Assembly: GCA_902595225.1 (NCBI GenBank)
Contig: CACJPG010000001.1
Coordinates: 3,583-67,582, forward strand
Reading direction: 5' to 3'
Length of the DNA: 64,000 bases
Source: an uncultured Thiothrix sp.
Lineage (GTDB): Bacteria; Pseudomonadota; Gammaproteobacteria; Poriferisulfidales; GCA-002705445
This document shows, piece by piece, positions 412 through 23,214 of the stretch. The notes below the pieces were generated by a model, which did not search any database, had not been told where the DNA came from, and was given only the letters and a program-made list of their open reading frames with translations. Both the position numbers and the translations under genes were made by a program. Positions within the stretch are counted from its first letter, which is position 1. Each line of letters opens with the position of its first letter.

Positions 412-422
412 TTAAAATTATT

Positions 423-731: not shown

Positions 732-739
732 ATCTGAGA

Positions 740-2539: not shown

Positions 2540-2829
2540 TATTTTTCCCGTTTAGAAAGCATAAATGAGAAAAATACAAATCTATATTGAATTGTGATGA
2601 TTTGATTGAATCTGAAAGGGTTTCAGTAATGTTATTAAATTTCGTAATAAGATTTCTCATTTTTTTTGCTTTAATTAATTATATATTAGCTATTTTTAGA
2701 AATGCTTTTTTTAAGCAAAACCTATAATTCATTTGAAGCAGCCACTATATTTGTTATCTGCTTACATATTGCTAATATATCAGTCTTGAGGTATTTCATC
2801 AAATTATCTAACATTTTATAGGTATCTAT

Positions 2830-3720: not shown

Positions 3721-3725
3721 TACTT

Positions 3726-4298: not shown

Positions 4299-4367
4299 CT
4301 ATTTTTCCTGTATAATCTTCAAAATTTTGGTGAAAACGTAGGTAATTCATAATTATAGGACCATAAT

Positions 4368-4571
4368 ATGGCTGTTCAAAAAAGCAAAAAAACTAGCTCA
4401 AAAAGGGGCATGAGAAGATCTCATGACCATATTGACCTACCTAAACTCTCTCAAGATCCTGTCTCTGGTGAAACACATTTAAGACATCATGTCTCAAAGA
4501 ATGGTTTCTACAAGGGTAATCAAGTAATTATACCTAAATCTGCAGATAGTTCTAACGACGAAGAGAATTAA
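4368..4571 (+). CDS. rpmF: 50S ribosomal protein L32
   Basis: [20 protein letters not shown] is the canonical L32 N-terminus. It lies upstream of plsX-fabH. Confidence 0.95.
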
Positions 4572-4596
4572 ATCTTAGTAATTATTTTTTCTTAAA

Positions 4597-5610: not shown

Positions 5611-5613
5611 ATT

Positions 5614-6537: not shown

Positions 6538-6542
6538 AAAAA

Positions 6543-8360: not shown

Positions 8361-8363
8361 TAT

Positions 8364-8903
8364 ATGAATTATGCAATTATAATTACTTATTTAAGGATTG
8401 CCCTAATTCCTATCATGGTGCTTTTATTTTTTTTAAGTTCTGATAACCCGCAATATAGTCTTACTTTTATTTTTTTCCTTGCAGCTATAACTGATTATTT
8501 AGATGGTTTTATTGCAAGGAAAATGAATTTAATGTCAGAACATGGAAAGTTTCTTGATCCTGTTGCTGACAAGCTTTTAGTTGCGTCATCTTTATTAATT
8601 ATTTTGGCAGATAATAATGAACTTATAATTTTTATTCCTACATGTATAATAATATTGAGAGAAATAATGGTCTCTGCAATAAGAGAATGGGCAGCAAGAG
8701 AGGATATAAAGGATTTAGTTGAAGTAAACTACCTTGGGAAATTAAAGACTTTTGTTCAAATGATTTCGATAGGTTTTTTGCTTTTTAATGGTACTATCTT
8801 TACAATTAACATATATTTATTAGGCCTATATGGAATAAATATAGCAGCCTTTTTATCGCTGTTATCTATGTTAATATATTTAAAAAATGTTATTAAGCCA
8901 TAG
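8364..8903 (+). CDS. pgsA: CDP-diacylglycerol-glycerol-3-phosphate 3-phosphatidyltransferase
   Basis: It carries the CDP-alcohol transferase motif DYLDGFIARK...DPVADKL. The uvrC-pgsA-tRNA order also fits. Confidence 0.92.
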   Translation: MNYAIIITYLRIALIPIMVLLFFLSSDNPQYSLTFIFFLAAITDYLDGFIARKMNLMSEHGKFLDPVADKLLVASSLLIILADNNELIIFIPTCIIILREIMVSAIREWAAREDIKDLVEVNYLGKLKTFVQMISIGFLLFNGTIFTINIYLLGLYGINIAAFLSLLSMLIYLKNVIKP

Positions 8904-8911
8904 ATATTTGT

Positions 8912-8987
8912 GCGGGAATAGCTCATCTGGTAGAGCGCAACCTTGCCAAGGTTGAGGTAGCGAGTTCGAGCCTCGTTTCCCGCTCCA
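8912..8987 (+). tRNA. tRNA-Gly (anticodon GCC), CCA encoded
   Basis: Hand-folded: acceptor gcgggaa/ttcccgc, anticodon arm caacc-ttGCCaa-ggttg, T arm gcgag-ttcgagc-ctcgt. Confidence 0.93.
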
Positions 8988-8996
8988 TTTTTTAGT

Positions 8997-9070
8997 GGCT
9001 GTGTGGCAGAGTGGTTATGCTGCGGTCTGCAAAACCGTTTACGCCGGTTCGATTCCGACCACAGCCTCCA
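8997..9070 (+). tRNA. tRNA-Cys (anticodon GCA), CCA encoded
   Basis: Hand-folded: acceptor ggctgtg/cacagcc, anticodon loop ctGCAaa, T arm gccgg-ttcgatt-ccgac. Confidence 0.92.
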
Positions 9071-9091
9071 TTAGTGAGAAAGGAATGTAAT

Positions 9092-9610
9092 ATGAGAAAT
9101 TTATATGATTATCCTATAGGTGAAAATTCGCCAGATGAGTTTAATGTAATTATAGAGGTTCCGCACGGAAGTAATAATAAGTACGAGTACAATTCTGAGT
9201 ATGACATTTTTCAATTAGATAGAGTCTTATTTAGTTCAGTACATTACCCAGGTTGTTATGGATTTATTCCTCAAACTCTTGGGGGAGACGGAGACCCTTT
9301 GGATGTAATCGTTTTGGCAGGAGAACCTTTCTCAACTGGAACCGTTCTCAAAGCAAGACCAGTAGGTTATTTAAAAATGACAGACGACAAAGGCCAGGAC
9401 GAAAAGATTTTAGCTGTACCCGTTGACGACCCAAGATTTAATGAGAGACATTCACTGAAAGATATAAGAAAACATGTTCTGCTGGAAATTGAACACTTTT
9501 TTCAAATTTATAAAGATCTTGAAAATAAATTTGTTGATATAGACAAATGGTATGACCTTGACGAAACTAAGAAGTTAATTGTTGAAAGTAACAATAATTA
9601 TAAAAAGTAA
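9092..9610 (+). CDS. ppa: Inorganic pyrophosphatase (family I)
   Basis: The track ORF 9011.. runs through tRNA-Cys, so I trimmed it to the ATG at 9092, which follows gagaaaggaa. Motifs are EVPHGSNNKYEY and DGDPLDVIVL. Confidence 0.92.
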   Translation: MRNLYDYPIGENSPDEFNVIIEVPHGSNNKYEYNSEYDIFQLDRVLFSSVHYPGCYGFIPQTLGGDGDPLDVIVLAGEPFSTGTVLKARPVGYLKMTDDKGQDEKILAVPVDDPRFNERHSLKDIRKHVLLEIEHFFQIYKDLENKFVDIDKWYDLDETKKLIVESNNNYKK

Positions 9611-9611
9611 A

Positions 9612-9636
9612 CCTTGGTTACTTTAAGCAACCAAGG
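9612..9636. terminator. Hairpin between convergent ppa and the ABM-like gene; candidate bidirectional terminator
   Basis: A perfect 8-bp stem ccttggtt / aaccaagg with a 9-nt loop, followed by attt. It lies in the 37-bp gap between two convergent stop codons. Confidence 0.5.
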
Positions 9637-9647
9637 ATTTGAAAAAA

Positions 9648-10055
9648 CTATTTAGTTATTGATGCTTTATAGATATTTTCTGGCTCTTGCTCACCTTGCC
9701 AAAGAAGCTCATATCCAAGTTCACGAGCTTCATCACAAAATTCAACTAAGTTTCCAAAAAGCTCTTTGAAAGTTTCATGAGAGTGGCTTTTCTCATGTTC
9801 CTCAAAAGAATCCCAATAAGTTACTATCGCAATATGGTTTCCTTCTTTACCAAAATCTCCAACACTTCCTTCGTCACTTATAAAGCCAGAGTATTTAAAT
9901 ACTTGCCCAGCTCGAAATCCAGGATAATTATTTTTTACAACGAAACACATTTCGCCGATAAGCCCCTCAACATCCTCAATCGTTACGTTTTCCTTAAGCT
10001 TAACAATATTGAAAAGCATTACTGATTCATAAGGTATAGTGATTTTATCAAACAT
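9648..10055 (-). CDS. Hypothetical protein with an ABM/Dabb-like (ferredoxin-like fold) appearance
   Basis: A 135-aa ORF. The segment HIAIVTYWDSFEEHEKSHSHETFKELF resembles the W-x-S-x-E-x-x-x-x-H pattern of antibiotic-biosynthesis-monooxygenase-like domains. The assignment is weak. Confidence 0.45.
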   Translation of the reverse strand: MFDKITIPYESVMLFNIVKLKENVTIEDVEGLIGEMCFVVKNNYPGFRAGQVFKYSGFISDEGSVGDFGKEGNHIAIVTYWDSFEEHEKSHSHETFKELFGNLVEFCDEARELGYELLWQGEQEPENIYKASITK

Positions 10056-10235
10056 ATTTGTTACTCCATTAACATAATTGCCACTCTTAAGTAATATATT
10101 AATAATATTTTTGTAACTTCATATATCCCTTTATTGGTATATAATAAATTACTAATATAATTGCTTTATTTAGAACATAATGCAAATAAGATAACTATAC
10201 TAGCCTCTAGAAACGTATATAATTACGGCTTATTA

Positions 10236-10322
10236 GCCCAGGTGGCGAAATTGGTAGACGCAAGGGACTTAAAATCCCTCGGTAGAAATACCGTGCCGGT
10301 TCGACTCCGGCCCTGGGCACCA
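10236..10322 (+). tRNA. tRNA-Leu (anticodon UAA), long variable arm, CCA encoded
   Basis: Hand-folded: acceptor gcccagg/cctgggc, anticodon arm aggga-ctTAAaa-tccct, variable arm cggtagaaataccg, T arm gccgg-ttcgact-ccggc. Confidence 0.92.
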
Positions 10323-10347: not shown

Positions 10348-11187
10348 ATGACAAAAATAAAGAATAATATCTCAAAAAAAAGAATAATATTTTCAGATCT
10401 TGATGGCTCTTTCTTAAATGAAGATAATTTTACTTACGGTAATAATGTTAAATTAGTGAAAAAATTATTGAGGGAAGATAATTTTATAGTATTCAATTCA
10501 AGCAAAACATACATTGAGATAAAAGAATTTTTAGAATATATAAATATTGATTTACCTTTTATATGCGAAAATGGAGGAGGTATATATGCTCCAAAAGATA
10601 TTTTTCCAAAAAATCATCGATATAGAGATAGATTTTGTATTGTTAACGAATCAGAAAGAATTAAAAATAATAATAAATTTGATTTTGAGGAAATAAAAAA
10701 AATATTTAGCGGTAAAATAATTTTTTTAAAAGACTTATCAGTTGGGGAGCAGATTAAATTATCTGGACTGGATGAAAAATCATTACTTTCTGCCATGAAC
10801 AGGGAATTTACTGAAATTGTTATCGTGAATTCATGTGAAAATATACAAAAAGATTTTACCACTTACTTAAACATCAGAAATCTTAATATCTCTAAAGGAG
10901 GGAGGTTTCACCATATTTCATCAAAATTTAATAAGGGGCAAGCAATGTTAAGGCTTGTCAATGAATTTAAAAAATATTACTCTAATATTGAATATACAAC
11001 TGTTGCCATAGGTGATAGTAATAACGATTTGGAAATGTTGAATGCAGCTGATTTTTCTTGCTTAATAAAAAATCGCAGTAATAATGAATTACTAAAGAAG
11101 ATTGATTGTTCAAATTTATACGTAAGTAAAAATTTTGCACCATACGCATGGGAAGAATATATCGAGAATTACTTAGTCAAAATTTAA
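10348..11187 (+). CDS. HAD-IIB phosphatase, mannosyl/glucosyl-3-phosphoglycerate phosphatase type (YedP/MpgP-like)
   Basis: It has the HAD motif I FSDLDGSFL and motif IV GDSNNDLEML. The C-terminal PYAWEEYIENYL parallels the YedP C-terminus as I recall it. It lies adjacent to the matching synthase. Confidence 0.8.
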   Translation: MTKIKNNISKKRIIFSDLDGSFLNEDNFTYGNNVKLVKKLLREDNFIVFNSSKTYIEIKEFLEYINIDLPFICENGGGIYAPKDIFPKNHRYRDRFCIVNESERIKNNNKFDFEEIKKIFSGKIIFLKDLSVGEQIKLSGLDEKSLLSAMNREFTEIVIVNSCENIQKDFTTYLNIRNLNISKGGRFHHISSKFNKGQAMLRLVNEFKKYYSNIEYTTVAIGDSNNDLEMLNAADFSCLIKNRSNNELLKKIDCSNLYVSKNFAPYAWEEYIENYLVKI

Positions 11188-11202
11188 ATTTTAGGGGGCC
11201 AA

Positions 11203-12417
11203 ATAGCAGATTTTCATCAAAATGGTGTAATAAGCACCTTACATAATATTTCTAATAGGTCTTTTGAAGAATTAGAAAGCGAGCTTATAGAATTCTCTAA
11301 AGAAAGACCAATAGAATTGATATTACCCTCACTTTATTCCGAAATTGAGGGACCTGCGCTTAAAAATATTGTCAAAATTTTATCAAATAATAAATTTTTA
11401 AATCATATTACCATTGGTTTAGATAAAGCAAATAAAACTCAATTTCAAGATGCAAAAATTTTTTTTAAAGATCTAAAGGTCCCTCATTCTGTAATTTGGA
11501 ATGATGGGCCTAGAATGAAAGCTCTTGATAACCAGCTAAGTGAACAAGGTTTGGCACCAAAAGAACCCGGTAAGGGGAAAAATGTTTGGTATTGTATGGG
11601 TTATATTCTAGCTAGAGATCAAGCTCGCTCAATTGCGATTCACGATTGTGATATATTAACTTATAACAAAGAGCTCTTAGCAAGGCTTATTTACCCAGTT
11701 GCTAATCCACTTTTTGATTATGAATTTTGTAAAGGCTACTACCCTAGATTAGGAAATAATAAACTGAATGGGAGGGTAACTAGATTATTAGTTACGCCAT
11801 TATTAAAAACATTTAAAAAAGTTTTGGGCCATAGGGATTATATAGAGTTTATTGATGTTTTCCGATACCCGTTGGCTGGAGAATTTTCTTTTAGAAGCAG
11901 GCTATTAAAAGAACTTAGAATACCAAGTGATTGGGGTTTAGAGATTGGGATCCTGTCTGAGATGCAAAGAAATCAAGCTAGCAATAGAATATGCCAAGTA
12001 GATATATCAGATGCATATGATCATAAACATCAAGAATTATCTCAAGCTGATAAAACAAAAGGACTTTCAAAAATGTCTATAGATATTTCAAAAACACTAA
12101 TTCGAAAACTAGCAGCTCAAGGGGATACTTTTACATCAAATACATTAAGAACAATCAAAGCAACTTATTATCGTACAGCTTTAGACTTGCTAGAAATTTA
12201 TAATAATGACGCAAAAATTAATGGGCTTAGTTTGGATATTAATGAAGAGGAAATTGCGATTGAATTATTCTCAAATAATATTATTATCGCTGGACAAGAA
12301 TTCCTTGAAAACCCAAATGAAAATCCTTTGATCCCAAATTGGAATAGAGTTCAAAACGCAATTCCAGATTTCAAGGATAATTTTATTCAAGCCGTAAAGG
12401 ATGATTCAACAATCTAA
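11203..12417 (+). CDS. Glucosyl(or mannosyl)-3-phosphoglycerate synthase (GT-A fold, MpgS/GpgS type); the start codon is uncertain (ATA at 11203 or ATT at 11188; first canonical start is TTG at 11317)
   Basis: GKGKNVWYCMGYILARDQARSIAIHDCDILTY resembles the MpgS nucleotide-sugar-binding region. The frame is open back to 11188 and encodes ADFHQNGVISTLHN.., ahead of the first beta-strand-like LILPSLYSE where the track ORF begins. A GGGGG run lies 4 nt upstream of the ATA. Confidence 0.72.
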   Translation: MADFHQNGVISTLHNISNRSFEELESELIEFSKERPIELILPSLYSEIEGPALKNIVKILSNNKFLNHITIGLDKANKTQFQDAKIFFKDLKVPHSVIWNDGPRMKALDNQLSEQGLAPKEPGKGKNVWYCMGYILARDQARSIAIHDCDILTYNKELLARLIYPVANPLFDYEFCKGYYPRLGNNKLNGRVTRLLVTPLLKTFKKVLGHRDYIEFIDVFRYPLAGEFSFRSRLLKELRIPSDWGLEIGILSEMQRNQASNRICQVDISDAYDHKHQELSQADKTKGLSKMSIDISKTLIRKLAAQGDTFTSNTLRTIKATYYRTALDLLEIYNNDAKINGLSLDINEEEIAIELFSNNIIIAGQEFLENPNENPLIPNWNRVQNAIPDFKDNFIQAVKDDSTI

Positions 12418-12427
12418 AATATAAGAA

Positions 12428-14182
12428 ATGATTTCAGATAATAGTTTAAAAAAAAGAATACAAAACCATTTAATACAAATATATGGCGACATCCACAGTA
12501 GTGACGAAATCTACAGTATTGCTGATAATTTAACTTCTTTTTTATCTGAGCAGCATGAGTTACTAGAAACAAAAAAAAGTATTGATGACTTTAACAGATG
12601 GTCAGAAAAAAGTATTCTGTTAATAACCTATGGCGATACTATTTTAGGTGAAGATAAATCTTCTTTGAAAACACTATCTAATTTTTTACAAAAAAGTTGT
12701 AAAAAAACTTTCTCAATGGTTCATATACTTCCTTTCTTTCCCTCAAGCTCAGATCATGGTTTTTCTGTAATAAACTACTATACCGTAGAAGAAAAATATG
12801 GAGACTGGAAAGATATAAAAAATATAAGTGAAGAGTTCGATGTAATGTGCGATGTTGTTCTTAACCATGGTTCTGTCAAAAGCGAATGGTTTCAAAATTT
12901 TATAAATGGAAATGGAGATGGAGCAAATTATTTCTATACCACGAATGCTGAAATTGATACTTCTAAGGTTGTTAGACCAAGAACAAATAAACTCCTAACT
13001 AAAGTCAAGACTGTTAATGGTGAAAAGTATGTTTGGTGCACGTTCAGTGAAGATCAAGTTGATTACAACTTCTCAAACTTTGAAGTTGTAAAAGAATTTG
13101 TCAAAATAATTTCCTTTTACATATCAAACGGAATAAATGTTTTTAGATTTGATGCAGTAGCATTTATTTGGAAAAAAATTGGTTCAAACTGTATTAATCT
13201 TCCAGAAACTCATGAAATTGTAAGACTTTTCAGAACGGTATTAGATTATTTATCACCAAAATCAATTCTTGTGACAGAAACAAATACTCCTGCTCGCGAG
13301 AATGTAACTTATTTTGGAAATGCAAATGAAGCACATTGGATTTATAATTTTTCTCTCCCTCCAGTTTTAATCTATTCTATATTAAAGGGTGATTCATCAA
13401 TTCTAAAAAAACTTACTATGACAATGCCGCCTGCTCAATTGGGAACATCATATTTAAACTTCATTGCATCTCATGATGGAATAGGGCTTCGCCCCGCAGA
13501 AGGTATTTTAACAAAAAAGCAGACCGAATCTCTTGTCAGATTAATGGAAAAAAATGGTGGGCAGACGTCTTATAGAGTAGCTTCTGATAATGAATCAAAA
13601 CCATATGAAATGAATATATCACTATTTGATGCAATGAAGGCTACATTTAAAGAAAAAGACGAATTTGTCTTTCAAAGGTTTATTTGTATACATACCATAA
13701 TGTTGTCGCTTGAAGGGGTGCCAGCTTTTTATATTCACAGTATGTTTGGAACTAAAAATGATCAAGAGCTTTACAAGAAAACCCAGCATAATAGAGATTT
13801 AAATAGACATTCTTATAAAGAGCAAGAAGTATACGATTTCTTAGAAGATGAAAGCGATTATAGAGGTAAAATATTTAAACAAATAAATATTTTAATAGAA
13901 ATTAGAAGAAAACAATTAGCATTTCATCCAAATGCTGTTCAATTCACTCTTCATCTTGGTAAACATTTTTATGGAATATGGCGTCAGAGCCTAGATAAAA
14001 AGCAGAGTATATTTTGCATCTCAAATTTGACAAGCAAAGACAGAAAACTATCTTTAATTGAAATAAATCTCATTGGTTTTGAGGAGTGGAAAGATTTAAT
14101 TAGTGATAAAATCATAAATGATATTGATGCTGAAATCGTGTTGAAACCATATCAAACCCTATGGATTTCTAATCAATTTTAA
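12428..14182 (+). CDS. GH13_18 sucrose-phosphorylase-family enzyme, probably glucosylglycerate phosphorylase (YcjM-like)
   Basis: The 584-aa protein has GH13 catalytic-region motifs (VLNHGS, FRFDAVAFIWK, VTETN, IASHDGIGLRP). It is clustered with the glycosylglycerate synthase and phosphatase. Confidence 0.7.
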   Translation: MISDNSLKKRIQNHLIQIYGDIHSSDEIYSIADNLTSFLSEQHELLETKKSIDDFNRWSEKSILLITYGDTILGEDKSSLKTLSNFLQKSCKKTFSMVHILPFFPSSSDHGFSVINYYTVEEKYGDWKDIKNISEEFDVMCDVVLNHGSVKSEWFQNFINGNGDGANYFYTTNAEIDTSKVVRPRTNKLLTKVKTVNGEKYVWCTFSEDQVDYNFSNFEVVKEFVKIISFYISNGINVFRFDAVAFIWKKIGSNCINLPETHEIVRLFRTVLDYLSPKSILVTETNTPARENVTYFGNANEAHWIYNFSLPPVLIYSILKGDSSILKKLTMTMPPAQLGTSYLNFIASHDGIGLRPAEGILTKKQTESLVRLMEKNGGQTSYRVASDNESKPYEMNISLFDAMKATFKEKDEFVFQRFICIHTIMLSLEGVPAFYIHSMFGTKNDQELYKKTQHNRDLNRHSYKEQEVYDFLEDESDYRGKIFKQINILIEIRRKQLAFHPNAVQFTLHLGKHFYGIWRQSLDKKQSIFCISNLTSKDRKLSLIEINLIGFEEWKDLISDKIINDIDAEIVLKPYQTLWISNQF

Positions 14183-14364
14183 ATATATATATATCATATA
14201 TTTACAAGAATATTTTAATGCCGATATTAATATGATGTGATATAAAGCAGTTATTGTTTGTAAATATCCTGAAATTTGTTAAATTTAGTCAGTATTATGC
14301 TTTAAACTTTGTTTGTTGTATAAAAATAATGCATAGGTTAATAATTTTAATATAAGGAAGTAAA

Positions 14365-14754
14365 ATGTCTGAGAAAATAAATGTTATGGTAACAACTGAA
14401 AATATGGAGCAAATGCAGATGGCTGCTATGATTGCTTCAGTAGGTGCAGTGAGTGGCAATGATGTAAGCGTATTCCTTTCTATGAATGCTTTAAAATATT
14501 TTATGAAAGGTAATGATCATAAGGCACCATTAGAAGGTGAAATGGGTAAAACCATGCTAGAGAAAAATGTACCACCTTTTTTAGAGTTGTTCCAACAAGC
14601 CGTAGAACTTGGTGACGCAAAAATATTTCCCTGTTCAATGGCAATGGATATGTTAGAAATTAAGTCTGAAGATTTGTTCGATTATGTTGGAGAACCAATG
14701 GGTCTAACAAAATTTATCAGTGATGTTAACGAAGGACAAGTTTGGTCCTTTTAA
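14365..14754 (+). CDS. DsrE/DsrF-like sulfur-relay family protein (COG2210-like)
   Basis: It is 129 aa with a conserved-looking Cys in KIFPCSMAMDML and the small alpha/beta pattern typical of DsrE-like proteins. A TusA-like gene follows immediately. Confidence 0.6.
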   Translation: MSEKINVMVTTENMEQMQMAAMIASVGAVSGNDVSVFLSMNALKYFMKGNDHKAPLEGEMGKTMLEKNVPPFLELFQQAVELGDAKIFPCSMAMDMLEIKSEDLFDYVGEPMGLTKFISDVNEGQVWSF

Positions 14755-14769
14755 TTTATAGGAAATATT

Positions 14770-15000
14770 ATGTCAGATAGAATACTAGTTGATGCGAAGA
14801 ATACGTTTTGCCCTGGCCCATTGATGGAATTAATTTCTAATATGAAAATGGCAGATGTTGGAGCAGAACTTGAACTGTTATCAACTGATGAAGGTTCAGC
14901 AGCAGATATCCCAGAGTGGGTAAATAAAGTTGGTCATGAAATAATCGAAAGTTTTAAGGAAGATGATGTTTTACATATCATCGTTAAAAAGGTTAAGTAA
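14770..15000 (+). CDS. TusA-like sulfurtransferase
   Basis: It is 76 aa with the N-terminal active-site motif CPGPLMEL (CPxP). Confidence 0.8.
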   Translation: MSDRILVDAKNTFCPGPLMELISNMKMADVGAELELLSTDEGSAADIPEWVNKVGHEIIESFKEDDVLHIIVKKVK

Positions 15001-15025
15001 TTTTAATTGAGATAGGAGTAAAGTA

Positions 15026-16153
15026 ATGCATATTTTAGTAGTTGGTGGAGGAATGGGAGGTACTATCCTTGCAAATAATTTAGCAAGAAGGCTTTCTGGT
15101 GAATTAGAGCAAGGCTCTTCAAAAATTACAATGTTATCTGCGACAGATAAACATATGTATCAACCTGGTCTTCTTTATGTTGCAGTAGGAAAAATGTCAA
15201 CAACAGAACTATACAGAGACCAAAAAAGTTTATTAGAACCATCTATTGATTTTCATGTAGATCCAGTTGAAAAGTTTGATATGGATAACAACTCTGTTAC
15301 AACAAAGAGTGGAAAGAAGATATCATATGATATTCTTTGCATAGCAACAGGTTCTCGAGGAAATGCCGCAGGTATACCTGGACTTGCTGAAAATGCATGC
15401 CAGTTTTACACTGAAGCCGATGCCCTTGCCATGTATAAGAAACTTCAGAAATTTGAAGGTGGAAAAGTTGTCGTTGCAACAGGAGTACCTCATAAGTGCC
15501 CAATGTCTCCTTTAGAAATTACTTTCTTTTTAGTCGATTATTTCAAGAAAAGAGGTATTTGGGACAAAGTTGATCTTCACTATACCTATCCTATCGGTAG
15601 AGTGCATAGCTTGGAGCCAGTTGCTAATTGGGCAGCCCCAGAATTTGATAAACTTGGAATTACTTATGAAACACTTTTTAACATGAAAGAAGTAGTTCCA
15701 GGAAAAGTTATCAGTGAAGAAGACAGTTCTGCAGAATTCGATTTATTGGTTACTGTTCCACCACACAAAGGGCAACAAGTAATCGAAGATAATGAACTAG
15801 GGGCTGGTGGTTTCATCCCAACTGATAAGAAAAAGTTGAATATGGAAGGCAGAGAAAATGTTTTTGTTCTTGGTGACACAACTAATCTTCCAATTAGTAA
15901 AGCTGGTTCAACAGCGCATTTTGAAGCTGAGGCGCTCGGCGAAAATATTGCAGCTCTTGTTCAGCAAGGAGAGCCAGTTCGTGAATATGATGGAAAAGTG
16001 TTTTGCTTTATCGAGGCTGGTGATGGAAAAGCTACATATGCAATGTTTGACTACAATAATCCTCCAAATCCGCAAGCACCAACATCTGGTTTACATTGGT
16101 TTAAAACCGCTTACAACAGAATGTATTGGGCAAGCGCAAGAGGTATAATATAA
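15026..16153 (+). CDS. FAD-dependent pyridine nucleotide-disulfide oxidoreductase, sulfide:quinone-reductase-like
   Basis: It has the N-terminal Rossmann motif ILVVGGGMGG. Two candidate redox Cys sit in SQR-like contexts (PHKCPMSPLE and KVFCFIEAGDG). A DUF1641 partner follows. Confidence 0.65.
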   Translation: MHILVVGGGMGGTILANNLARRLSGELEQGSSKITMLSATDKHMYQPGLLYVAVGKMSTTELYRDQKSLLEPSIDFHVDPVEKFDMDNNSVTTKSGKKISYDILCIATGSRGNAAGIPGLAENACQFYTEADALAMYKKLQKFEGGKVVVATGVPHKCPMSPLEITFFLVDYFKKRGIWDKVDLHYTYPIGRVHSLEPVANWAAPEFDKLGITYETLFNMKEVVPGKVISEEDSSAEFDLLVTVPPHKGQQVIEDNELGAGGFIPTDKKKLNMEGRENVFVLGDTTNLPISKAGSTAHFEAEALGENIAALVQQGEPVREYDGKVFCFIEAGDGKATYAMFDYNNPPNPQAPTSGLHWFKTAYNRMYWASARGII

Positions 16154-16175
16154 TTTTAAAAAAAAGGTGCAAATT

Positions 16176-16517
16176 ATGAGCAGTGAAATAAGTGTACAAC
16201 AACAAGTTGACAGATTCATGCAAGGTGCAGGGGATGCTCTTACAGATGATACTGTTGCTAGATTAGGCTTTATGATAAATGAGCTTTTAATAATAGCTGA
16301 TAGAATTACAAGGAATAAAAATATTATGAAACTCCTTGAAATGTCAGAAAGTAAGGATTTTGCAAAAGTGCTTGATGCTCTTGGTAATGCAGTTGAGTCA
16401 CAGAAGAATGCTCCAAAATCTTCTGGTATTGGCGGTATGCTAAAAGTCATGGGTGATCCAAATGTGCAAAACTCTTTGAGATTATTGGGAAGCATAAATA
16501 AGGAACTTAATAAGTAG
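16176..16517 (+). CDS. DUF1641-domain protein (usual partner of SQR-like flavoproteins)
   Basis: The C-terminal GGMLKVMGDPNVQNSLRLLGSI resembles the DUF1641 signature. I chose the ATG at 16176 after aaggtg; the track starts at the GTG at 16167. Confidence 0.6.
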   Translation: MSSEISVQQQVDRFMQGAGDALTDDTVARLGFMINELLIIADRITRNKNIMKLLEMSESKDFAKVLDALGNAVESQKNAPKSSGIGGMLKVMGDPNVQNSLRLLGSINKELNK

Positions 16518-16541
16518 TATCTCTTGTTTTTTCGATAAAAC

Positions 16542-17129
16542 TTGATGTTTGAAAACAAATTAAACCACATCGATATACAATCGTTATTCGTAGGTATTGC
16601 TATACTACTTATTGCATTTTTACGTGTAATACCACATGTGTATAATTTTAGCCCAGTAATTGCTTTAGCAATTTTTGGAGCAATTCATTTTAAAAAACAA
16701 GTTCACGCTTACTTAACAATTTTATTATCATTAATAGTTAGCGATATCATAATAAATAATTTTTTATATGATTCAAAAAATAGTTTTTTATTTTTTTATG
16801 AGGGATTCTATTGGCAATATTTTTCTTACTTTCTGATAATTTTAATGAGTTCTAACTTTAGAAAAAATAAAATCGGAATTAAAAATGTTACTTTTCTTTG
16901 CTTGTCCTCTACTTTAATATTTTTTACTGTTTCGAACTTAGGTTTTTGGATAAGCTCTGGTTATTACCCATACACTATTGATGGTTTAACAACAGCTTTC
17001 ATCAAAGCAATCCCTTTTTACCAAGGGACTTTATTTGGGGCATTTTTTTATACCCCAATTTTATTTGGGGGCTATTATTTGTTACAAAAAAGTAATAGAA
17101 ATTTTCAGTCTAGGCATCTAATTTATTAA
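16542..17129 (+). CDS. Polytopic membrane protein, possibly a DUF6580-type putative transporter
   Basis: It is 195 aa with about 5-6 hydrophobic helices. The NFSPVIALAIFGA motif recalls DUF6580 proteins, from memory only. Confidence 0.45.
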   Translation: MMFENKLNHIDIQSLFVGIAILLIAFLRVIPHVYNFSPVIALAIFGAIHFKKQVHAYLTILLSLIVSDIIINNFLYDSKNSFLFFYEGFYWQYFSYFLIILMSSNFRKNKIGIKNVTFLCLSSTLIFFTVSNLGFWISSGYYPYTIDGLTTAFIKAIPFYQGTLFGAFFYTPILFGGYYLLQKSNRNFQSRHLIY

Positions 17130-17215
17130 AATGTTTAATTGAATTTGTTCTAATATTAATGTAGTTTATGTATCAGAATTATTAAGTCTTTATAAAAATA
17201 CCGTGGAGGTCAAAA

Positions 17216-17830
17216 ATGAGTAACGAGTTTGATAATAATATTATAGACGAAGCTGTTATTGGACAAGCAGCCCCAGACTTTAGTGCGACTGCTGTAGTCA
17301 ATAACGAGTTTAAAGATATAAAATTATCAGATTATAAGGGAAAATTTGTTGTTCTTTTTTTCTACCCTTTAGACTTTACATTTGTTTGTCCAACCGAAAT
17401 CACTGGTTTCAATGATAGATACTCAGATTTTAAAGCTTTAGATACAGAGATACTAGGCGTATCTGTTGACAGTCAATTCTCACATTTAAAATGGATTCAA
17501 ACACCAAGAAAAGAGGGCGGGCTTGGCAAATTAGATTATCCATTAGTATCTGATTTAACAAAGGAAATAAGCTATAAATATGGTGTTCTTTTAGACGACT
17601 CAATATCAACTAGGGGTCTTTTTATTATAGATGCTGAAGGAATAATTCAACATGTAACAATTAACAATTTACCGGTTGGTCGAAACGTTGATGAAACTCT
17701 CAGGCTCATTGCAGCTTTTAAGCATGTTCAAGCTAATCCTAATGAGGTGTGCCCAATGAACTGGACTCCAGGTGACAAAACCATGAATCCTGATCCGGAA
17801 AAATCAAAAGAGTATTTTAAAGACGTTTAA
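17216..17830 (+). CDS. Typical 2-Cys peroxiredoxin (AhpC/Tsa family)
   Basis: The peroxidatic motif is [14 protein letters not shown] and the resolving Cys sits in EVCPMNW. Confidence 0.92.
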
Positions 17831-18024: not shown

Positions 18025-20976
18025 ATGGCAACCAAGCAAGACAAAATTAGTTTTCACAAAGATAAATTTTCAGTAAATGCTAAAAAACTTCCAGCATTTG
18101 AAAATCACGAAAAACAAACTCATAAACATACCACATGCTATATGTGCGCTTGCCGTTGTGGAATAAAAGTTACGCTTGAGAACAATAAGATTAGATATAT
18201 CCAAGGAACACCAACGCATCCTGTAAATAAGGGTGTTTTATGTGCAAAAGGTAATGCTGGCATAATGAAGCAGATTTCTCCAGCTCGACTAAGGCAGCCA
18301 CTTTTGAGAAAACCTGGCTCGGAGAGAGGCACAAGTGAATTTATACCAATAAGTTGGGATGAAGCTCTTGATATGCTCACCGAAAAACTTGAGAAAATTA
18401 GGAAAACCGATCCAAAAAAACTTGCTTTCTTTACAGGTAGAGATCAAATGCAGGCTTTAACCGGACTATGGGCACAACAGTTTGGAACAGTTAATTGGGC
18501 TGCACACGGTGGATTCTGCTCGGTAAATATGGCAGCTGCCGGTCTTTATACAACAGGCTTTTCATTTTGGGAATTTGGGGATCCTGATTGGGATAAAACC
18601 AAATACTTTATGCTTTGGGGGGTTGCAGAAGATCATGCATCAAATCCAATTAAAATCGGTATTAATAAATTAAAAGAAAGGGGTGGAAAATTTGTTGCTA
18701 TTAACCCAGTTAGGACTGGCTACCAATCAGTTGCTGATGAGTGGGTGCCAATAAAACCTGGAACTGATGCTATGTTAGCTTTATCCCTTATACATGTCTT
18801 ACTTAAAAATGAATTATTTGATTGGGAATTTTTGGTTCGATATACAAACGCACATTATCTTGTTGTTGATACTCCAAGAGAGAAAGGTGATGGATTATTT
18901 TATAGAAACAAAGAAGGTGTTCCTCAATCTTGGGATTTAGAAAAAGAGACAACTGTAAATGCTACAGATGCAAAAATTAAACCAGCATTACTCGGAAGCT
19001 ACAAGACTAAAGATGGAACACCTGTTAAAACAGTTTTTACTTTGATGACTGAAAGATACTTAGACAATGAATACTCACCTGAAATGGCAAGCAAAATATG
19101 TGGTGTTCCTGCAAAACAAATCGAAAGAATAGCAAGAGAACTTGCCCACGTTGCTTTTAAGGAAACTATTGAAGTTGATACTGAGTGGACAGATTGGACA
19201 GGCAGAAAACACGATAAATTTATCGGCCGACCAGTTTCCATGCATGCTATGAGAGGAATCTCTGCTCACTCAAACGGTTTCCAAGCATGCAGATCAATTC
19301 ATTTCTTACAAGTTTTACTTGGATCAGTTGATTGCCCTGGAGGACATTTGGCCAAACCCCCTTATCCTAAACATGTGGCTCCACCAATAAAACCAGGAAA
19401 AAATATTGTACCAGGTGAGCCTTTAGAGAGTTTTCCTTTAGGTTTTCCTCAAGAGCCTGAGGATTTAGTTATTGATGATGATGGAAATCCTTTAAGAATT
19501 GATAAAGCTTATTCATGGGAAGCACCAATCGCAAACCATGGCTTGATGCATATGGCTATTACAAATGCTGTTGCAGGGGATCCATATGAAATTGATATGA
19601 TGATATTTTTCATGGCGAACATGGCATGGAATTCTACAATGAATACTTCAAAGATAAGAGAGTCACTGTGTGCAAAAAATAAAAATGGTGAGTACAAAAT
19701 TCCATTTTTAGTTGTATGCGATGCATTTGACTCAGAAACTGTGGGATATGCAGATTTAGTTATTCCGGATACGACATATTTAGAAAGATACGATACTATC
19801 TCAATACTAGATAGGCCTATTTCTGAACCTCATGCAATCTGTGACTCAATACGCTCACCTGTGCTTGAACCTGATAGAGACGTGAGACCTTGGCAAACCG
19901 TTTTAGTAGAGCTTGCAAGTAGATTAAAGTTTCCTGCATTCACGAAAAAAAATGGCGAAAGAAAATTTAAAGATTATAAAGACTTTATAATTAACTATGA
20001 GAAAGCACCTGGTATTGGTTTCCTTGCTGGATGGAGAGGTGAGAATGGTGAAAATAGTCTTAAAGGCAAACCTAATCAAAATCAGTGGGAAAAATATATT
20101 GAAAATAAATGTTTCTTTCAATATGAAATAGCTGATAGTCATAAGTATTTTCGCGGTGCAAATCAAGGCTATTTAGAATTTGCGAAAAAGGTCGGGTTCA
20201 ATACATCGTCGGAGCCTATAATTATTGAATTGTATTCTGAAAAGTTACAGAAATTTAGATTAGCTGGACTAGGTTTATATGATGGACCACAACCAAAAAG
20301 AGAAAGAGACCAATTTAGGATGTCTAGATTCTTTGATCCTTTGCCTGCTTATTATATTCCGCTAGAACATAGATGTACTTTTTCACAAAAATTTCCTTTC
20401 TATGCAATCACACAAAGACCAATGTTTATGTATCACTCGTGGGACTCTCAAAATGCTTGGCTGAGACAGCTCCAGGCGCATAATTATATGCATATGAATA
20501 AATCAAAAGCGGAAGAACTTGGTATAAAAGATTTGTCATGGGTTTGGGTTGAATCAAACACTGGTAAAATAAAAGTACAGGTTAAGCTTATGGAAGGGGT
20601 AGAAAGTGACACTCTATGGACTTGGAATGCTATTGGTAAGCAAAAAGGTAAGTGGGGTCTTGAGGACGATGCAAATGAATCTACAAAAGGTTTTTTACTC
20701 AATCATCTTATCAATGAGCATCTACCATGCGCTGATACTGGTAATCCTATAACAAACTCTGACCCTATTACTGGTCAAGCAGCTTGGTATGATCTAAAAG
20801 TAAATATTTACCCCGCGGCTGAAGATGAACAGTTTGGCGTTTATCCTAATTTTGAGAGAGCTAACAAAGTTCCTGGTGCTCCAGAGACAAGCAACGTTTT
20901 AAGATATAACACAAAAAAACCTGTAAAACTGTCTAGGTCCCTTAAAGATATTCTTACTAAAGGGGGTTTTGAATGA
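18025..20976 (+). CDS. soeA: Molybdopterin (bis-MGD) oxidoreductase catalytic subunit without a Tat signal; SoeA-like (sulfite dehydrogenase) candidate
   Basis: It is 983 aa. The N-terminal [4Fe-4S] motif is CYMCACRCG...LCAKG. The first 45 residues have no twin-arginine or hydrophobic leader. It is followed by a 4x[4Fe-4S] subunit and a DmsC-like subunit with an ATGA overlap. Size and architecture match SoeABC as I recall it. Confidence 0.6.
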   Translation: MATKQDKISFHKDKFSVNAKKLPAFENHEKQTHKHTTCYMCACRCGIKVTLENNKIRYIQGTPTHPVNKGVLCAKGNAGIMKQISPARLRQPLLRKPGSERGTSEFIPISWDEALDMLTEKLEKIRKTDPKKLAFFTGRDQMQALTGLWAQQFGTVNWAAHGGFCSVNMAAAGLYTTGFSFWEFGDPDWDKTKYFMLWGVAEDHASNPIKIGINKLKERGGKFVAINPVRTGYQSVADEWVPIKPGTDAMLALSLIHVLLKNELFDWEFLVRYTNAHYLVVDTPREKGDGLFYRNKEGVPQSWDLEKETTVNATDAKIKPALLGSYKTKDGTPVKTVFTLMTERYLDNEYSPEMASKICGVPAKQIERIARELAHVAFKETIEVDTEWTDWTGRKHDKFIGRPVSMHAMRGISAHSNGFQACRSIHFLQVLLGSVDCPGGHLAKPPYPKHVAPPIKPGKNIVPGEPLESFPLGFPQEPEDLVIDDDGNPLRIDKAYSWEAPIANHGLMHMAITNAVAGDPYEIDMMIFFMANMAWNSTMNTSKIRESLCAKNKNGEYKIPFLVVCDAFDSETVGYADLVIPDTTYLERYDTISILDRPISEPHAICDSIRSPVLEPDRDVRPWQTVLVELASRLKFPAFTKKNGERKFKDYKDFIINYEKAPGIGFLAGWRGENGENSLKGKPNQNQWEKYIENKCFFQYEIADSHKYFRGANQGYLEFAKKVGFNTSSEPIIIELYSEKLQKFRLAGLGLYDGPQPKRERDQFRMSRFFDPLPAYYIPLEHRCTFSQKFPFYAITQRPMFMYHSWDSQNAWLRQLQAHNYMHMNKSKAEELGIKDLSWVWVESNTGKIKVQVKLMEGVESDTLWTWNAIGKQKGKWGLEDDANESTKGFLLNHLINEHLPCADTGNPITNSDPITGQAAWYDLKVNIYPAAEDEQFGVYPNFERANKVPGAPETSNVLRYNTKKPVKLSRSLKDILTKGGFE

Positions 20977-21668
20977 GATTAGGTTTAGTTGTAGATTTAG
21001 ATAAATGCGTAGGTTGTAATGCCTGTGCTATTGCATGCAAGCAATGGAACACTTCTGGAACTTCTGGCTCACTAACAGACTATAGGCCTTATGGTCCAGA
21101 TCCAAGCGGAGTATTTTTTAATAGAATTCGACATTACGAGACAGGAAATTATCCTGAAAATAAAACAGTGCATTTCCCAATGTCATGTATGCATTGCGAA
21201 GAAGCTGCATGTGTTACTGTGTGCCCAACGGGCGCTTCGTATAAAAGAGAAGAAGATGGAATTGTTTTAGTTGATCCTGAAAAATGTATGGGATGTAACT
21301 ATTGTGCATGGGCATGCCCCTATGGTGCAAGGGAACTCGATCGCGAGGAAGGGATTATGAAAAAGTGCACGTTGTGCGTAGATAGAATATACGATGAAAA
21401 CTTACCTGAATCAGAAAGAAAGCCAGCATGTGTAATGACTTGTCCAACAACCGCAAGATATTTTGGTGATTTTGATGATCCCAACTCAGAAGTGTCGATA
21501 GTTTCAAAAGAAAGAGAGGGACAAGAGTTATTTTCTGAACTAGGCTATAAGCCAGTAAACAAATATTTATCACCACGTAAGAAAGTTGAGATAGAGCAAC
21601 ATGAAATAGTTGAGCCTGATCTTGTTAGAAAAGTTAAAGATTGGGTTAATAAAGTAGTTGAATTGTAA
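20973..21668 (+). CDS. soeB: Four-cluster [4Fe-4S] ferredoxin subunit (DmsB/PsrB family); SoeB-like
   Basis: Cys clusters are CVGCNACAIAC, CMHCEEAACVTVCP, CMGCNYCAWACP and CTLC..CVMTCP. The start overlaps the stop of the catalytic subunit. Confidence 0.7.
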   Translation: MRLGLVVDLDKCVGCNACAIACKQWNTSGTSGSLTDYRPYGPDPSGVFFNRIRHYETGNYPENKTVHFPMSCMHCEEAACVTVCPTGASYKREEDGIVLVDPEKCMGCNYCAWACPYGARELDREEGIMKKCTLCVDRIYDENLPESERKPACVMTCPTTARYFGDFDDPNSEVSIVSKEREGQELFSELGYKPVNKYLSPRKKVEIEQHEIVEPDLVRKVKDWVNKVVEL

Positions 21669-21685
21669 AAATAAGGTAATTATTA

Positions 21686-22639
21686 ATGCACCCAGCATTT
21701 TCAGTCATTTTTTTCACAGTTACGTCAGGAGCAGGATATGGCTTGATGGCACTACTTTGTCTTTTTAATTTTTTATACCTTGGTATGCTTTTTGATAAAA
21801 ATATTTTTTTAATTTTCTCTGGCATAAGTGCAGTTCTTTTTACAATGGGCTTGATATCCTCAACATTTCATCTTGCAAACCCAAAAAATGCTTGGAGAGC
21901 TTTCATGAGATTTAGAACATCATGGCTGGCGAGAGAGGGTTTACTAGCAATTTTATTCTACCCCACACTATTTTTATATTTACTTTTAATACATCTGGAT
22001 TTTTATAAAGATTATTTCCTTTTAATGCAAATATATAGTGTTTTTATCTTCTTTTTTGCAATCTTAATAATATATTGTACTGGTATGATTTATGCGTGTT
22101 TAAAAACTATTCCTCAATGGAACACACCATGGACACCTATAAATTATATAACTATAGGTATTTATTTAGGCGGTTTAATATTTTTCGCATTATTGAGTTT
22201 TAATGATTTTAATATTAATCCATATAAGCCGTTTGTATTAGCCTTGATTTTTGTTGCATTCATAGCAAAGTTTATTTATTACTTAAGTATAAAGGGCCCG
22301 CGACATGAAATCGGTCAAGCAACAAATGCGGCGATTAAACTTAAAAATACAAACGTAAGACTTCTGGATGTAGGCCATACTGGAGGTACTTTTTTAACTG
22401 ATGAATTTGGATACAAAGTAGCAGAGAAAAGATTAAGAAAAATAAAGTGGTTTTCTATTTTTTCAGGATTTTTTATACCTTTTTTCTTAATTTTTTCATA
22501 CAGCTATTTCTTTGAAAATATATTTTTATGCTTATTTGCTGTCTTACTTTCTTTTACTGGCATGATTGCTGAAAGATGGCTATTCTTTGCAGAAGCAAAA
22601 CATGTCGTTAATCTCTATCACGGAGCACAGAAGTGTTAA
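21686..22639 (+). CDS. soeC: DmsC/NrfD-type membrane anchor subunit; SoeC-like
   Basis: It is 317 aa with about 8 hydrophobic helices. The N-terminus MHPAFSVIFFTVTSGAGYG is typical of the DmsC-family anchors I remember. Confidence 0.62.
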   Translation: MHPAFSVIFFTVTSGAGYGLMALLCLFNFLYLGMLFDKNIFLIFSGISAVLFTMGLISSTFHLANPKNAWRAFMRFRTSWLAREGLLAILFYPTLFLYLLLIHLDFYKDYFLLMQIYSVFIFFFAILIIYCTGMIYACLKTIPQWNTPWTPINYITIGIYLGGLIFFALLSFNDFNINPYKPFVLALIFVAFIAKFIYYLSIKGPRHEIGQATNAAIKLKNTNVRLLDVGHTGGTFLTDEFGYKVAEKRLRKIKWFSIFSGFFIPFFLIFSYSYFFENIFLCLFAVLLSFTGMIAERWLFFAEAKHVVNLYHGAQKC

Positions 22640-22815: not shown

Positions 22816-23214
22816 ATGTTATATTTAAAATTATTTACGGTTTCTTTTTTTACTTTTTTAATCCTAGATGCAATATGGTTAGGATTTGTAGCAAGAAATT
22901 TTTATGCTAAGTATTTAGCTTTATATTTGACAGAAAACGTTATTTGGCTATCAGCAATAATTTTTTATATTATTTTCAATATTGGCCTATTAGTCTTTGT
23001 AATCTTGCCTTCCATAGAAAAAAACTCATATTCAGTACTTATTATTTATTCTCTATTATATGGAATTGTAACGTTTGCCACATATGACCTAACAAATTAT
23101 GCAACAATAAAAAATTGGCCCTTCATTGTAACAATTGTAGATATTTGTTGGGGAATGTTTGTTGCATTCGCATCATCTTCAATGGCCTTTTTATTTCATA
23201 AATATTTTGTATAA
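22816..23214 (+). CDS. DUF2177-like small membrane protein
   Basis: It is 132 aa with 4 helices. FLILDAIWLGFVARNFY resembles the DUF2177 N-terminal signature, from memory. Confidence 0.5.
   Translation: MLYLKLFTVSFFTFLILDAIWLGFVARNFYAKYLALYLTENVIWLSAIIFYIIFNIGLLVFVILPSIEKNSYSVLIIYSLLYGIVTFATYDLTNYATIKNWPFIVTIVDICWGMFVAFASSSMAFLFHKYFV

Follow-up and report, generated by a model that had tools for sequence, protein, structure and literature searches.

A conserved four-gene locus pairs a relative of type III sulfide:quinone oxidoreductases with a DUF1641 protein and two putative sulfur carriers in an uncultured marine gammaproteobacterium

Sulfide:quinone oxidoreductases (SQRs) of type III form the class of these enzymes about which 'hardly anything' is known according to the literature. 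Here we describe a locus encoding a relative of this class in a 64,000-nucleotide (nt) stretch of contig CACJPG010000001.1 of an uncultured Thiothrix sp.; the whole stretch is referred to as the window. At this locus, the gene of an SQR-like flavoprotein is accompanied by those of a DsrE-like protein, a TusA-family protein and a protein of the family DUF1641, the latter hereafter called the partner. An operon of Methylacidiphilum fumariolicum SolV (MFUM_v2_0219-0221), which encodes a type III SQR, a TusA homologue and a DsrE2-like protein, was proposed to function in H2S oxidation and is co-induced in sulfide-adapted cells with log2 fold changes of 0.7-0.85 (PMC10205796). These are the same three gene families as in the window, a likeness taken from the published descriptions. 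No DUF1641 partner was reported for that operon, and the adjacent gene 0218 is barely expressed. A further described group, DsrE4, was defined as being encoded downstream of SQR (Liu et al. 2014, PMC4175335) and was proposed to detoxify reactive sulfur species (Tanabe et al. 2024, PMC11094781). In view of these publications, the term 'uncharacterised', which an earlier note on this DNA had applied to the cluster, was overstated. Three of the four genes represent an operon type already present in the literature, and the pairing with DUF1641 is the added element.

The earlier note had also named no established biochemical function for the pairing of an SQR-like protein with DUF1641. The mechanism of the DUF1641 family has by now been solved in Huc, ForCE and Ndh-Ncp, in which the DUF1641 protein forms a tetrameric tube that is scaffold, membrane dock and quinone path at the same time (PMC10017518, PMC13524794). 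Ndh-Ncp (YjlD-YjlC) of Bacillus subtilis comprises a flavoprotein quinone reductase with two dinucleotide-binding domains, encoded beside a small all-helical DUF1641 protein, as is the case in the window, and type II NADH dehydrogenase (NDH-2) and SQR are sister folds. The proposed electron donor in the window is sulfide, in contrast to NADH, H2 and formate in Ndh-Ncp, Huc and ForCE, respectively. Ndh-Ncp was reported as exclusive to Bacillota (PMC13524794), whereas the hosts of the present gene pair are Proteobacteria, with one additional contig on which the neighbouring genes have an archaeal appearance. Unlike Ndh-Ncp, HucM and ForE, the proteins described here feature one to four family-specific N-terminal repeats of ~57 amino acids (aa) and additional sulfur-carrier genes. 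A published connection between DUF1641 and an SQR was not found in 16 papers mentioning DUF1641; the pairing is apparently undescribed and, as far as we could find, new.

We propose, with a probability of roughly 0.5, that the four proteins constitute a cytoplasm-facing sulfide:quinone oxidoreductase, which would be fed with quinone via the DUF1641 scaffold and would pass persulfide on to protein carriers. This reading is inferred from sequence, modelled fold, gene order and the solved DUF1641 systems.

The conservation of the locus was analysed in 80 species genomes that encode a flavoprotein 67-98% identical to that of the window, and their open reading frames (ORFs) were searched with the window proteins. 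The family of the flavoprotein as such is very large, with 5492 matches at E <= 1e-20. The order DsrE-like gene, TusA gene, flavoprotein gene and DUF1641 gene on a single strand was found in 76 of the 80 genomes, and the DsrE-like gene is always the first of the conserved unit. Of the four exceptions, three are loci truncated by a contig end or close to one, and the fourth has a frameshifted partner gene. The partner gene follows directly downstream of the flavoprotein gene in 75/80 loci, and is frameshifted in locus L055; the remaining four loci are truncated at, or close to, the end of their contig. In L055 the gene is split by the frameshift (9147-9842 and 9451-9765), which reflects either an assembly error of the metagenome-assembled genome (MAG) or a pseudogene.

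Gammaproteobacterial hosts of the unit are Thiotrichales-labelled MAGs, Thiogranum, Acidiferrobacteraceae and Chromatiales, while Burkholderiales, Gallionella, Ferrovum, Sterolibacterium and Usitatibacter are hosts among the Betaproteobacteria. Some Alphaproteobacteria carry it as well. The identical four-gene order was also observed at flavoprotein identities of 49% and 43%, the latter on a contig with archaeal-looking neighbour genes. Cys90 of the DsrE-like protein as well as Cys158 and Cys327 of the flavoprotein are kept in 80/80 cases, and Cys14 of the TusA-family protein in 81/81. Both the linkage of the four genes and the active-site cysteines proposed in the earlier note are hence retained in orthologues, and its view of a sulfur-trafficking cluster built around an SQR-like flavoprotein is supported.

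The earlier note had described a set of six genes, including those of a DUF6580 membrane protein and a peroxiredoxin, and had suggested measuring its co-occurrence with soeABC, a SoeABC-like enzyme being encoded downstream. Clustering of all flanking ORFs in the 80 genomes yielded no further conserved neighbour beyond the four-gene core. The DUF6580, peroxiredoxin and SoeABC-like genes are adjacent to it only in the lineage of the window (L001-L004, L008 and L009), corresponding to 2/80 species. In the other 78 species genomes the core sits among unrelated housekeeping genes. The conserved unit is tightly linked and comprises four genes, not six, and its arrangement is far beyond chance; the six-gene set together with soeABC was rejected as a conserved unit.

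The flavoprotein (15026..16153, + strand, 375 aa) matches Pfam Pyr_redox_2 with an E-value of 4.8e-18. Its N-terminal motif VVGGGMGGT for binding of flavin adenine dinucleotide (FAD) contains the residues G7, G9 and G12, which 32 diverse homologues share with few or no exceptions. A second GxGxxG motif for NAD(P)H is absent from the protein; the equivalent stretch GGKVVVATGVPHKCPMSP holds a catalytic cysteine instead. The sequence starts directly with the Rossmann strand, without a hydrophobic or transmembrane segment, so that no signal peptide is present and the protein therefore faces the cytoplasm. Fold, FAD motif, cysteines and location can be read firmly from sequence and model.

The sole strong match among the NCBIfam models was 'type III SQR, selenoprotein subtype' (NF049943; 296.6 bits, E 2.7e-88). 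The curated cut-off of 525 was not reached, and only model positions 2-353 of 406 were matched. Models for CoA-disulfide reductase (CoADR) and NDH-2-like proteins scored ~21 and ~20 bits, respectively. Among sequences in the PDB, human SQOR was the best match, with an identity of 24%. Cys158 and Cys327 align to the human SQOR cysteines in the motifs VKCAGAP and TSCPLV, which we take to be the catalytic Cys201 and Cys379. Both SQR-like cysteine contexts pointed out before, HKCPMSPLE with Cys158 and VFCFIEAG with Cys327, are thus real and invariant. The same two catalytic cysteines are present in the type III SQR of cable bacteria as Cys159 and Cys339 (PMC13047784).

The AlphaFold2 (AF2) model of the flavoprotein is confident (pLDDT 95, pTM 0.91). 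A Foldseek comparison gave TM-scores of 0.90 for human SQOR, 0.87 for the Aquifex SQR, 0.85 for the Acidithiobacillus ferrooxidans SQR, 0.80 for flavocytochrome c sulfide dehydrogenase (FCSD) and 0.78 for NDH-2. Identities as NDH-2, CoADR or FCSD were rejected based on the NCBIfam scores (297 bits for type III SQR versus 21 bits for CoADR), the TM-scores and direct reading of the sequence. A placement of the flavoprotein in the NDH-2 or CoADR clades, which the earlier note had named as a possible outcome, was thus not found. Although human and bacterial type II SQRs such as SQOR are the best structural match, the low identity sets them apart. As is proposed for the window module, type II SQRs transfer the persulfide to an acceptor and do not build up polysulfide. 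Their acceptors are glutathione (GSH), sulfite or fused rhodanese domains, and they possess two C-terminal membrane helices, which distinguishes them from the window protein.

The tail after the second catalytic cysteine (Cys327) is 48 residues long, compared to 69-95 residues in long-form type III SQRs, in agreement with the initial observation that long C-terminal membrane-binding helices are lacking. Two short C-terminal helices are left in the AF2 model (354-365 and 367-371). The last 22 residues, HWFK..YN..YW.SARGLL, are almost invariant in the 80 genomes.

The position of the protein among its relatives was derived from a search with representatives, NCBIfam scans and a rough neighbour-joining (NJ) tree. 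Long-form type III SQRs have 406-433 aa with 69-95 residues after the second cysteine and pass NF049943; P0159, P0163 and P0165 score 583-627 bits. The short-tailed radiation, which includes the window protein, has 369-393 aa with 46-55 residues after this cysteine and scores 297-393 bits. As judged from these comparisons, the flavoprotein falls into a sister clade of type III SQR that is characterised by short tails. Type III SQR (Marcia 2010; NF049943), with the enzymes of Caldivirga maquilingensis and Sulfurimonas denitrificans, is the nearest family by sequence (297 bits), and the window protein shares with it the lack of a signal peptide and the linkage to genes of small cysteine carriers and DUF1641 that is found at long-form loci. 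It differs in its score below the cut-off, its shorter tail and its separate clade in the rough NJ tree.

Several short-tailed members lack one or both catalytic cysteines: P0139 (G/F at the two positions), P0174 (N/S), P0162 (H/M), P0255 (G/L) and P0219 (A/L). Such proteins may be non-catalytic or differently acting paralogues. The SQR-like domain is also found in natural fusions: P0188 and P0200 carry a DsrC-like domain at the C-terminus, and P0180 contains two CBS domains. In a distant relative with 32% identity (L092), an HdrD-like CCG/Fe-S protein is encoded directly upstream of the DsrE-TusA-SQR genes (1319-2557), an arrangement that hints at a link to heterodisulfide-reductase-like chemistry.

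The gene of the DsrE-family sulfur-carrier protein (14365..14754, + strand, 129 aa) has an AAGGAAG ribosome-binding site 6 nt ahead of its ATG, the first of the unit. The protein matches Pfam DrsE_2 (55.6 bits, 7.5e-15) and also DsrE (33.2 bits). Its single cysteine, Cys90, is located in the motif CSMA.D. The closest solved structure is 2QS7, the DsrE2B protein SSO1126 (7e-12; PMC4175335). Classification against the DsrE clades, as suggested in the earlier note, gave a divided result. The protein is not a DsrE2 equivalog (23 bits versus a cut-off of 210, NF047629), and the Cys-X7-Cys motif that defines DsrE3A (PMC4175335) is absent, Cys90 being the only cysteine. The gene context agrees with DsrE4, the group with the prototype Mcup_1724, since the protein is encoded beside an SQR-like gene, and it may belong to this group. 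Identities to DsrE proteins beside long-form SQRs are 32-38% over ~65 residues, and the active-site cysteine is conserved in 49/49 of the latter.

The TusA-family sulfur-carrier protein (14770..15000, + strand, 76 aa) matches Pfam TusA (63.9 bits, 1.2e-17) and contains Cys14 in the sequence FCPGPLMELI. With 29.2 bits versus a cut-off of 78, it is not an equivalog of Escherichia coli TusA (NF001423), and by this measure it is a TusA-family carrier rather than the equivalog of the TusA for tRNA thiolation. A DsrE-family fold with an active-site cysteine and the CPxP cysteine of TusA are common to the two window carriers and the described DsrE4, DsrE2B and TusA relay proteins. The proposal of a persulfide-carrier pair was borne out insofar as both cysteines, Cys90 in FPCSMAM and Cys14 in CPGP, are present and conserved.

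The gene of the partner (16176..16517, + strand, 113 aa) is located 13-22 nt downstream of the flavoprotein gene. The ORF already opens at GTG 16167 (116 aa). Relatives have 113-114 aa and start with MSSEI, and an AAGGTG Shine-Dalgarno sequence is found upstream of ATG 16176, which is most likely the start of the gene rather than GTG 16167. Against PF07849 the window partner yields 23 bits, with a gathering score of 21 (Pfam), and 24/37 syntenic homologues match the same model (best value 4e-9); membership in the family can be read firmly from the sequence. The protein consists of one ~57-aa helical repeat and a C-terminal head (GIGGMLKVMGDPNVQNSLRLLG). Homologues in the 80 genomes have one repeat (window lineage, 113-116 aa), two (~177 aa), three (~250-265 aa) or four, with 1/2/3/4 copies in 9/50/14/1 partners (n = 76 proteins, loci L008-L087; examples are L028, 9148-9897, and L005, 11141-11674). 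The consensus of the repeat is E.ERL...A.DALTDDMV.RL......GL.LLDR.NRSGL..ALP.L..LV.NGDL.RL., and that of the head is GG.GG(L/M)(W/L/M)..M.DP..Q..L.FL followed by basic residues.

When a profile of the partner family was compared to all PDB sequences, the top three matches were YjlC (3.7e-4), Ncp (7.8e-4) and HucM (9.1e-4), of which the YjlC and Ncp entries represent the same B. subtilis protein; ForE1 followed with 0.057. The head motif G.GG(L/M)(W/L/M)..M.DP..Q with its basic flanks resembles the membrane-docking heads of HucM, ForE and Ncp (PMC13524794, PMC10017518). The membrane-facing terminal helix of HucM carries Arg, Lys and Trp (PMC10017518), and many partners have a Trp at the position aligned with the HucM Trp. 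No transmembrane segment was detected in the partner. Fusions of the flavoprotein with DUF1641 were not found among 150 representatives, with one doubtful 169-aa fragment (P0261).

As a control, 80 metagenomic loci of long-form type III SQRs (L098-L177) were analysed, 63 of which have enough downstream sequence. A DUF1641 gene (~233 aa) is present in 42/63 of these, at a median distance of 3.5 nt from the SQR stop codon. All ten sampled partners match PF07849, nine of them above the gathering score. The order SQR, DUF1641, DsrC-like, DsrE-like was found in 27/63 loci and the order SQR, DsrC-like, DsrE-like in 16/63. Genes of DsrC-like and/or DsrE proteins follow in 52/63, and all 63 loci contain a partner, a carrier or both. 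The carrier genes thus differ in kind and position, with DsrE and TusA upstream of the SQR-like gene in the window versus DsrC-like and DsrE downstream at long-form loci. The DsrC-like proteins beside long-form SQRs have a single cysteine, end with ..P.P.GC(I/V) and resemble the TusE/RspA type rather than two-Cys DsrC.

Since both links are also seen at long-form loci, the links to DUF1641 and to small cysteine carriers are general properties of the type III SQR radiation, independent of tail length. A role of DUF1641 as a replacement for lost membrane helices, restricted to short-tailed proteins, was considered and rejected, because 42/63 long-tailed loci have the partner and the short-tailed P0133 and P0170 are without an adjacent one. 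A short tail is therefore not what calls for DUF1641. As a tentative generalisation, which we consider possible and rather less probable than the proposal for the four proteins themselves, type III SQRs with short and long tails might generally work as DUF1641-scaffolded assemblies. The enzyme would be held off the membrane on a helical stalk, the length of which would be set by the 1-4 repeats of ~57 aa. Quinone would be drawn up this stalk, and sulfane sulfur would be passed straight to TusA and DsrE, or to DsrC-like proteins and DsrE, without free cytoplasmic polysulfide. If this is true, such assemblies would constitute a fourth class of quinone conduit after Huc, ForCE and Ndh-Ncp, the first outside Gram-positives and the first in sulfur metabolism.

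For the window module, the following sequence of events is proposed. HS- would attack a di- or trisulfide of Cys158 and Cys327, and sulfide would thereby reduce this centre and the FAD. Two electrons would then pass via the FAD to ubiquinone, which would be delivered through, or at least positioned by, a tube or oligomer of the DUF1641 partner. The basic C-terminal head of the partner would attach the assembly to the membrane in the way described for HucM, ForE and Ncp. The sulfane sulfur would not be released as polysulfide and would be taken up as persulfide by Cys90 of the DsrE-like protein and Cys14 of the TusA-family protein. The carriers may bring it to downstream users, for oxidation, detoxification or thio-cofactor synthesis. 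The SQR-DsrC-like fusions and the carrier genes at 52/63 long-form loci appear to support such a handover.

Several points weigh against this proposal. The match of the partner to solved DUF1641 proteins is weak (E ~1e-3) and confined to the C-terminal head. Its AF2 monomer is all-helical, but has a pLDDT of 52, and the amphipathicity of its helices is not above that of shuffled sequences (p = 0.13). The linkage is also incomplete within the short-tailed radiation: P0133 and P0170 have carriers and no adjacent DUF1641 gene, and P0167 has DUF1641 and no carriers, like the Ignicoccus pair Iho_0672/0673 (PMC3149612). With regard to sulfur transfer, DsrE2B bound none of six sulfur compounds tested (PMC4175335). 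A type III homologue of C. tepidum showed no SQR activity in membrane preparations (PMC4584964). As cited in two other studies, the type III SQR of Caldivirga was active and membrane-bound when expressed alone (PMC10205796, PMC13047784), so that the partner is not obligatory for catalysis in every member.

The last observation also bears on a variant of the same module, in which DUF1641 would only be an oligomerisation scaffold, a membrane tether or an assembly factor, and the flavoprotein would obtain its quinone straight from the bilayer via its own conserved C-terminal helix. The near-invariance of the last 22 residues fits this variant, as does the fact that long-tailed type III SQRs, which have membrane helices of their own, keep the partner. 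In addition, the Caldivirga SQR is reported, as cited in PMC13047784, to bind membranes alone, depending on its oligomeric state. However, the DUF1641 tube is both quinone path and scaffold in all three solved systems (PMC10017518, PMC13524794), and transmembrane segments are missing from both the flavoprotein and the partner. We consider a scaffold-only role unlikely, although worth weighing.

The carriers themselves could also be the substrate. The flavoprotein would then use quinone as acceptor to oxidise thiols or persulfides of TusA or DsrE; the product would be a trisulfide, polysulfide or heterodisulfide bound to the protein, and carriers would be regenerated or charged for another pathway. 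This would agree with carrier genes being linked to the flavoprotein more widely than DUF1641, with the existence of SQR-like/DsrC-like fusions, and with the tight complexes that DsrE and TusA form while exchanging sulfur groups (PMC4175335, PMC11094781). In contrast, the two cysteines and the fold are those of enzymes acting on free sulfide, and no enzyme of the SQR fold is known to take its electrons from a protein thiol. Moreover, it is sulfide to which the Methylacidiphilum operon responds, in cells that convert H2S to elemental sulfur (S0; PMC10205796). This possibility is regarded as rather improbable.

The neighbouring genes form the basis of another explanation, originally put forward in the earlier note, which would combine the cluster and the SoeABC-like enzyme into one dedicated route in the cytoplasm, leading from sulfide, persulfide or organosulfur via sulfite to sulfate, with the peroxiredoxin and the DUF6580 protein as functional members. 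The DUF6580 polytopic membrane protein (16542..17129, + strand, 195 aa; Pfam 3.7e-41, 141.5 bits) contains hydrophobic segments and is encoded 24 nt behind the four-gene core. No literature on DUF6580, no meaningful PDB match and no match in PHROGs was found. After a gap of 86 nt follows the gene of a typical 2-Cys peroxiredoxin (17216..17830, + strand, 204 aa; AhpC-TSA and 1-cysPrx_C domains), which stays below all equivalog cut-offs of NCBIfam and is of the ordinary 2-Cys type. The SoeABC-like enzyme (18025..22639, + strand) contains a molybdenum-bis(pyranopterin guanine dinucleotide) (Mo-bisPGD) cofactor and has subunits A (983 aa, with Fe4S4 domain), B (231 aa, with 4Fe-4S clusters) and C (317 aa, DmsC/NrfD-like), all with the expected Pfam domains. 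The N-terminus of the A subunit, MATKQDKISFHKDKFSVNAKKLPAFENHEK, lacks the RR motif of twin-arginine translocation (Tat) signals, and the active site is therefore cytoplasmic. Among solved structures, 2vpw is the nearest to this subunit; it was deposited as a thiosulfate reductase of Thermus and presumably is the polysulfide reductase Psr.

The architecture of this enzyme and the missing Tat signal are in line with such a route, and the nine genes are co-oriented and kept together in L001-L004, L008 and L009, down to 95% flavoprotein identity. A role of the peroxiredoxin could be seen in the distant SQR-like P0202, which has a weak N-terminal AhpC-TSA fragment (E 0.007). Against this stands the absence of the linkage in 78/80 species genomes: as the conserved unit consists of four genes and SoeABC is adjacent in the lineage of the window only, the link says little. 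Furthermore, prx and soeA are set off from the core by intervals of 86 and 194 nt, together with a terminator-like hairpin and sites resembling promoters, and the peroxiredoxin gene is probably its own transcription unit. An enzyme converting persulfide to sulfite (PDO, sHdr or rDsr) is absent from the cluster. The A subunit, at most a candidate orthologue of the SoeA characterised in Allochromatium vinosum and Ruegeria pomeroyi, is annotated only as 'molybdopterin oxidoreductase' or K00183. The route is thus weakly supported and appears quite unlikely. The adjacency to the DUF6580, peroxiredoxin and SoeABC-like genes is recent in the streamlined marine lineage and may or may not be functional.

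A module working in the opposite direction is very unlikely. In this case, quinol would supply the electrons with which the flavoprotein turns persulfide or polysulfide on the carriers into H2S, as a sulfur reductase or a detoxifier of sulfane sulfur. Ignicoccus hospitalis, a sulfur-reducing archaeon, indeed shows strong expression and induction of the flavoprotein/DUF1641 pair (PMC3149612), and DsrE4 was proposed as a detoxifier of reactive sulfur (PMC11094781). On the other hand, the organism is an oxic-ocean bacterium that is widespread in Tara samples, and the flavoprotein has no NAD(P)H site for low-potential electrons. Reduction of sulfane sulfur by ubiquinol, the quinone expected in Proteobacteria, is strongly uphill, as judged from standard potentials. 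A function in selenide oxidation or trafficking with a TusA/YedF-like carrier, at which the 'selenoprotein subtype' model, a weaker match to TIGR03169 (a flavoprotein domain N-terminal to SelD), weak matches of TusA to YedF models and a SelU-like gene near the module in L005 might point, can practically be dismissed, as all selenium-type matches are far below the cut-offs, the window cluster has no selenocysteine (Sec) codon, SelD or YedE, and the SelU neighbour lies on the other strand ~1.2 kb upstream and only in the L005-L007 placements of one protein.

The six co-oriented ORFs on the + strand were all confirmed at their coordinates, with the families as originally named (Pfam) and the quoted motifs in place. 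The intergenic gaps inside this set are 15, 25, 13, 24 and 86 nt, followed by 194 nt to the genes of the molybdenum enzyme. The intergenic region upstream of the DsrE-like gene (14183..14364, no strand), which had been described as a 182-bp AT-rich promoter region, is indeed 182 nt long and AT-rich, with 19% GC. Promoter-like hexamers are not enriched in it (47 versus 39.8 ± 6.5 in shuffled sequence), and the label 'promoter region' is therefore plausible, not established.

Directly upstream of the cluster, at 10348-14182, genes are located for a HAD phosphatase (Hydrolase_3/S6PP), a 366-aa protein without Pfam match and a 584-aa protein of the GH13 alpha-amylase family, possibly a gene set for a compatible solute (glucosyl compound). 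Downstream of the SoeC-like gene, a DUF2177 membrane protein (22816-23214) is directly encoded in all close relatives (L001-L004), followed by an ABC-2 transporter with a DUF7088/ABC_transp_aux protein. The region 45379-50022 begins with the gene of a second Mo-bisPGD enzyme (748 aa), which contains an Fe4S4 domain and lacks an obvious Tat motif. It further encodes an FAD/NAD-binding reductase of 379 aa that includes a ferredoxin domain, followed by an Amt ammonium transporter, and looks like an assimilatory unit of the nitrate-reductase type. The window further features a gene for transfer-messenger RNA (tmRNA; 62239-62591, - strand, tag ANEDNYALAA) and five tRNA genes (at 335-10322 and 43816-43892). 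Its GC content is ~30% throughout, and its proteins recur on ocean-metagenome contigs of up to 1.15 Mb, as expected for a streamlined pelagic gammaproteobacterium.

Taken together, the module suggests a way in which sulfide oxidisers of a little-understood class could be connected to respiration. If type III SQRs are normally made with a DUF1641 conduit and protein acceptors, there would be a concrete reason for misleading results in assays that use membranes or only the flavoprotein. The DUF1641 mechanism would then extend from the oxidation of H2, formate and NADH in Gram-positives to that of sulfide in Proteobacteria and possibly Archaea, and sulfide would have a defined entry into a cytoplasmic persulfide relay. 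Since the host is an abundant, genome-streamlined oceanic gammaproteobacterium, the module is also relevant to the cryptic sulfur cycle of oxic sea water.

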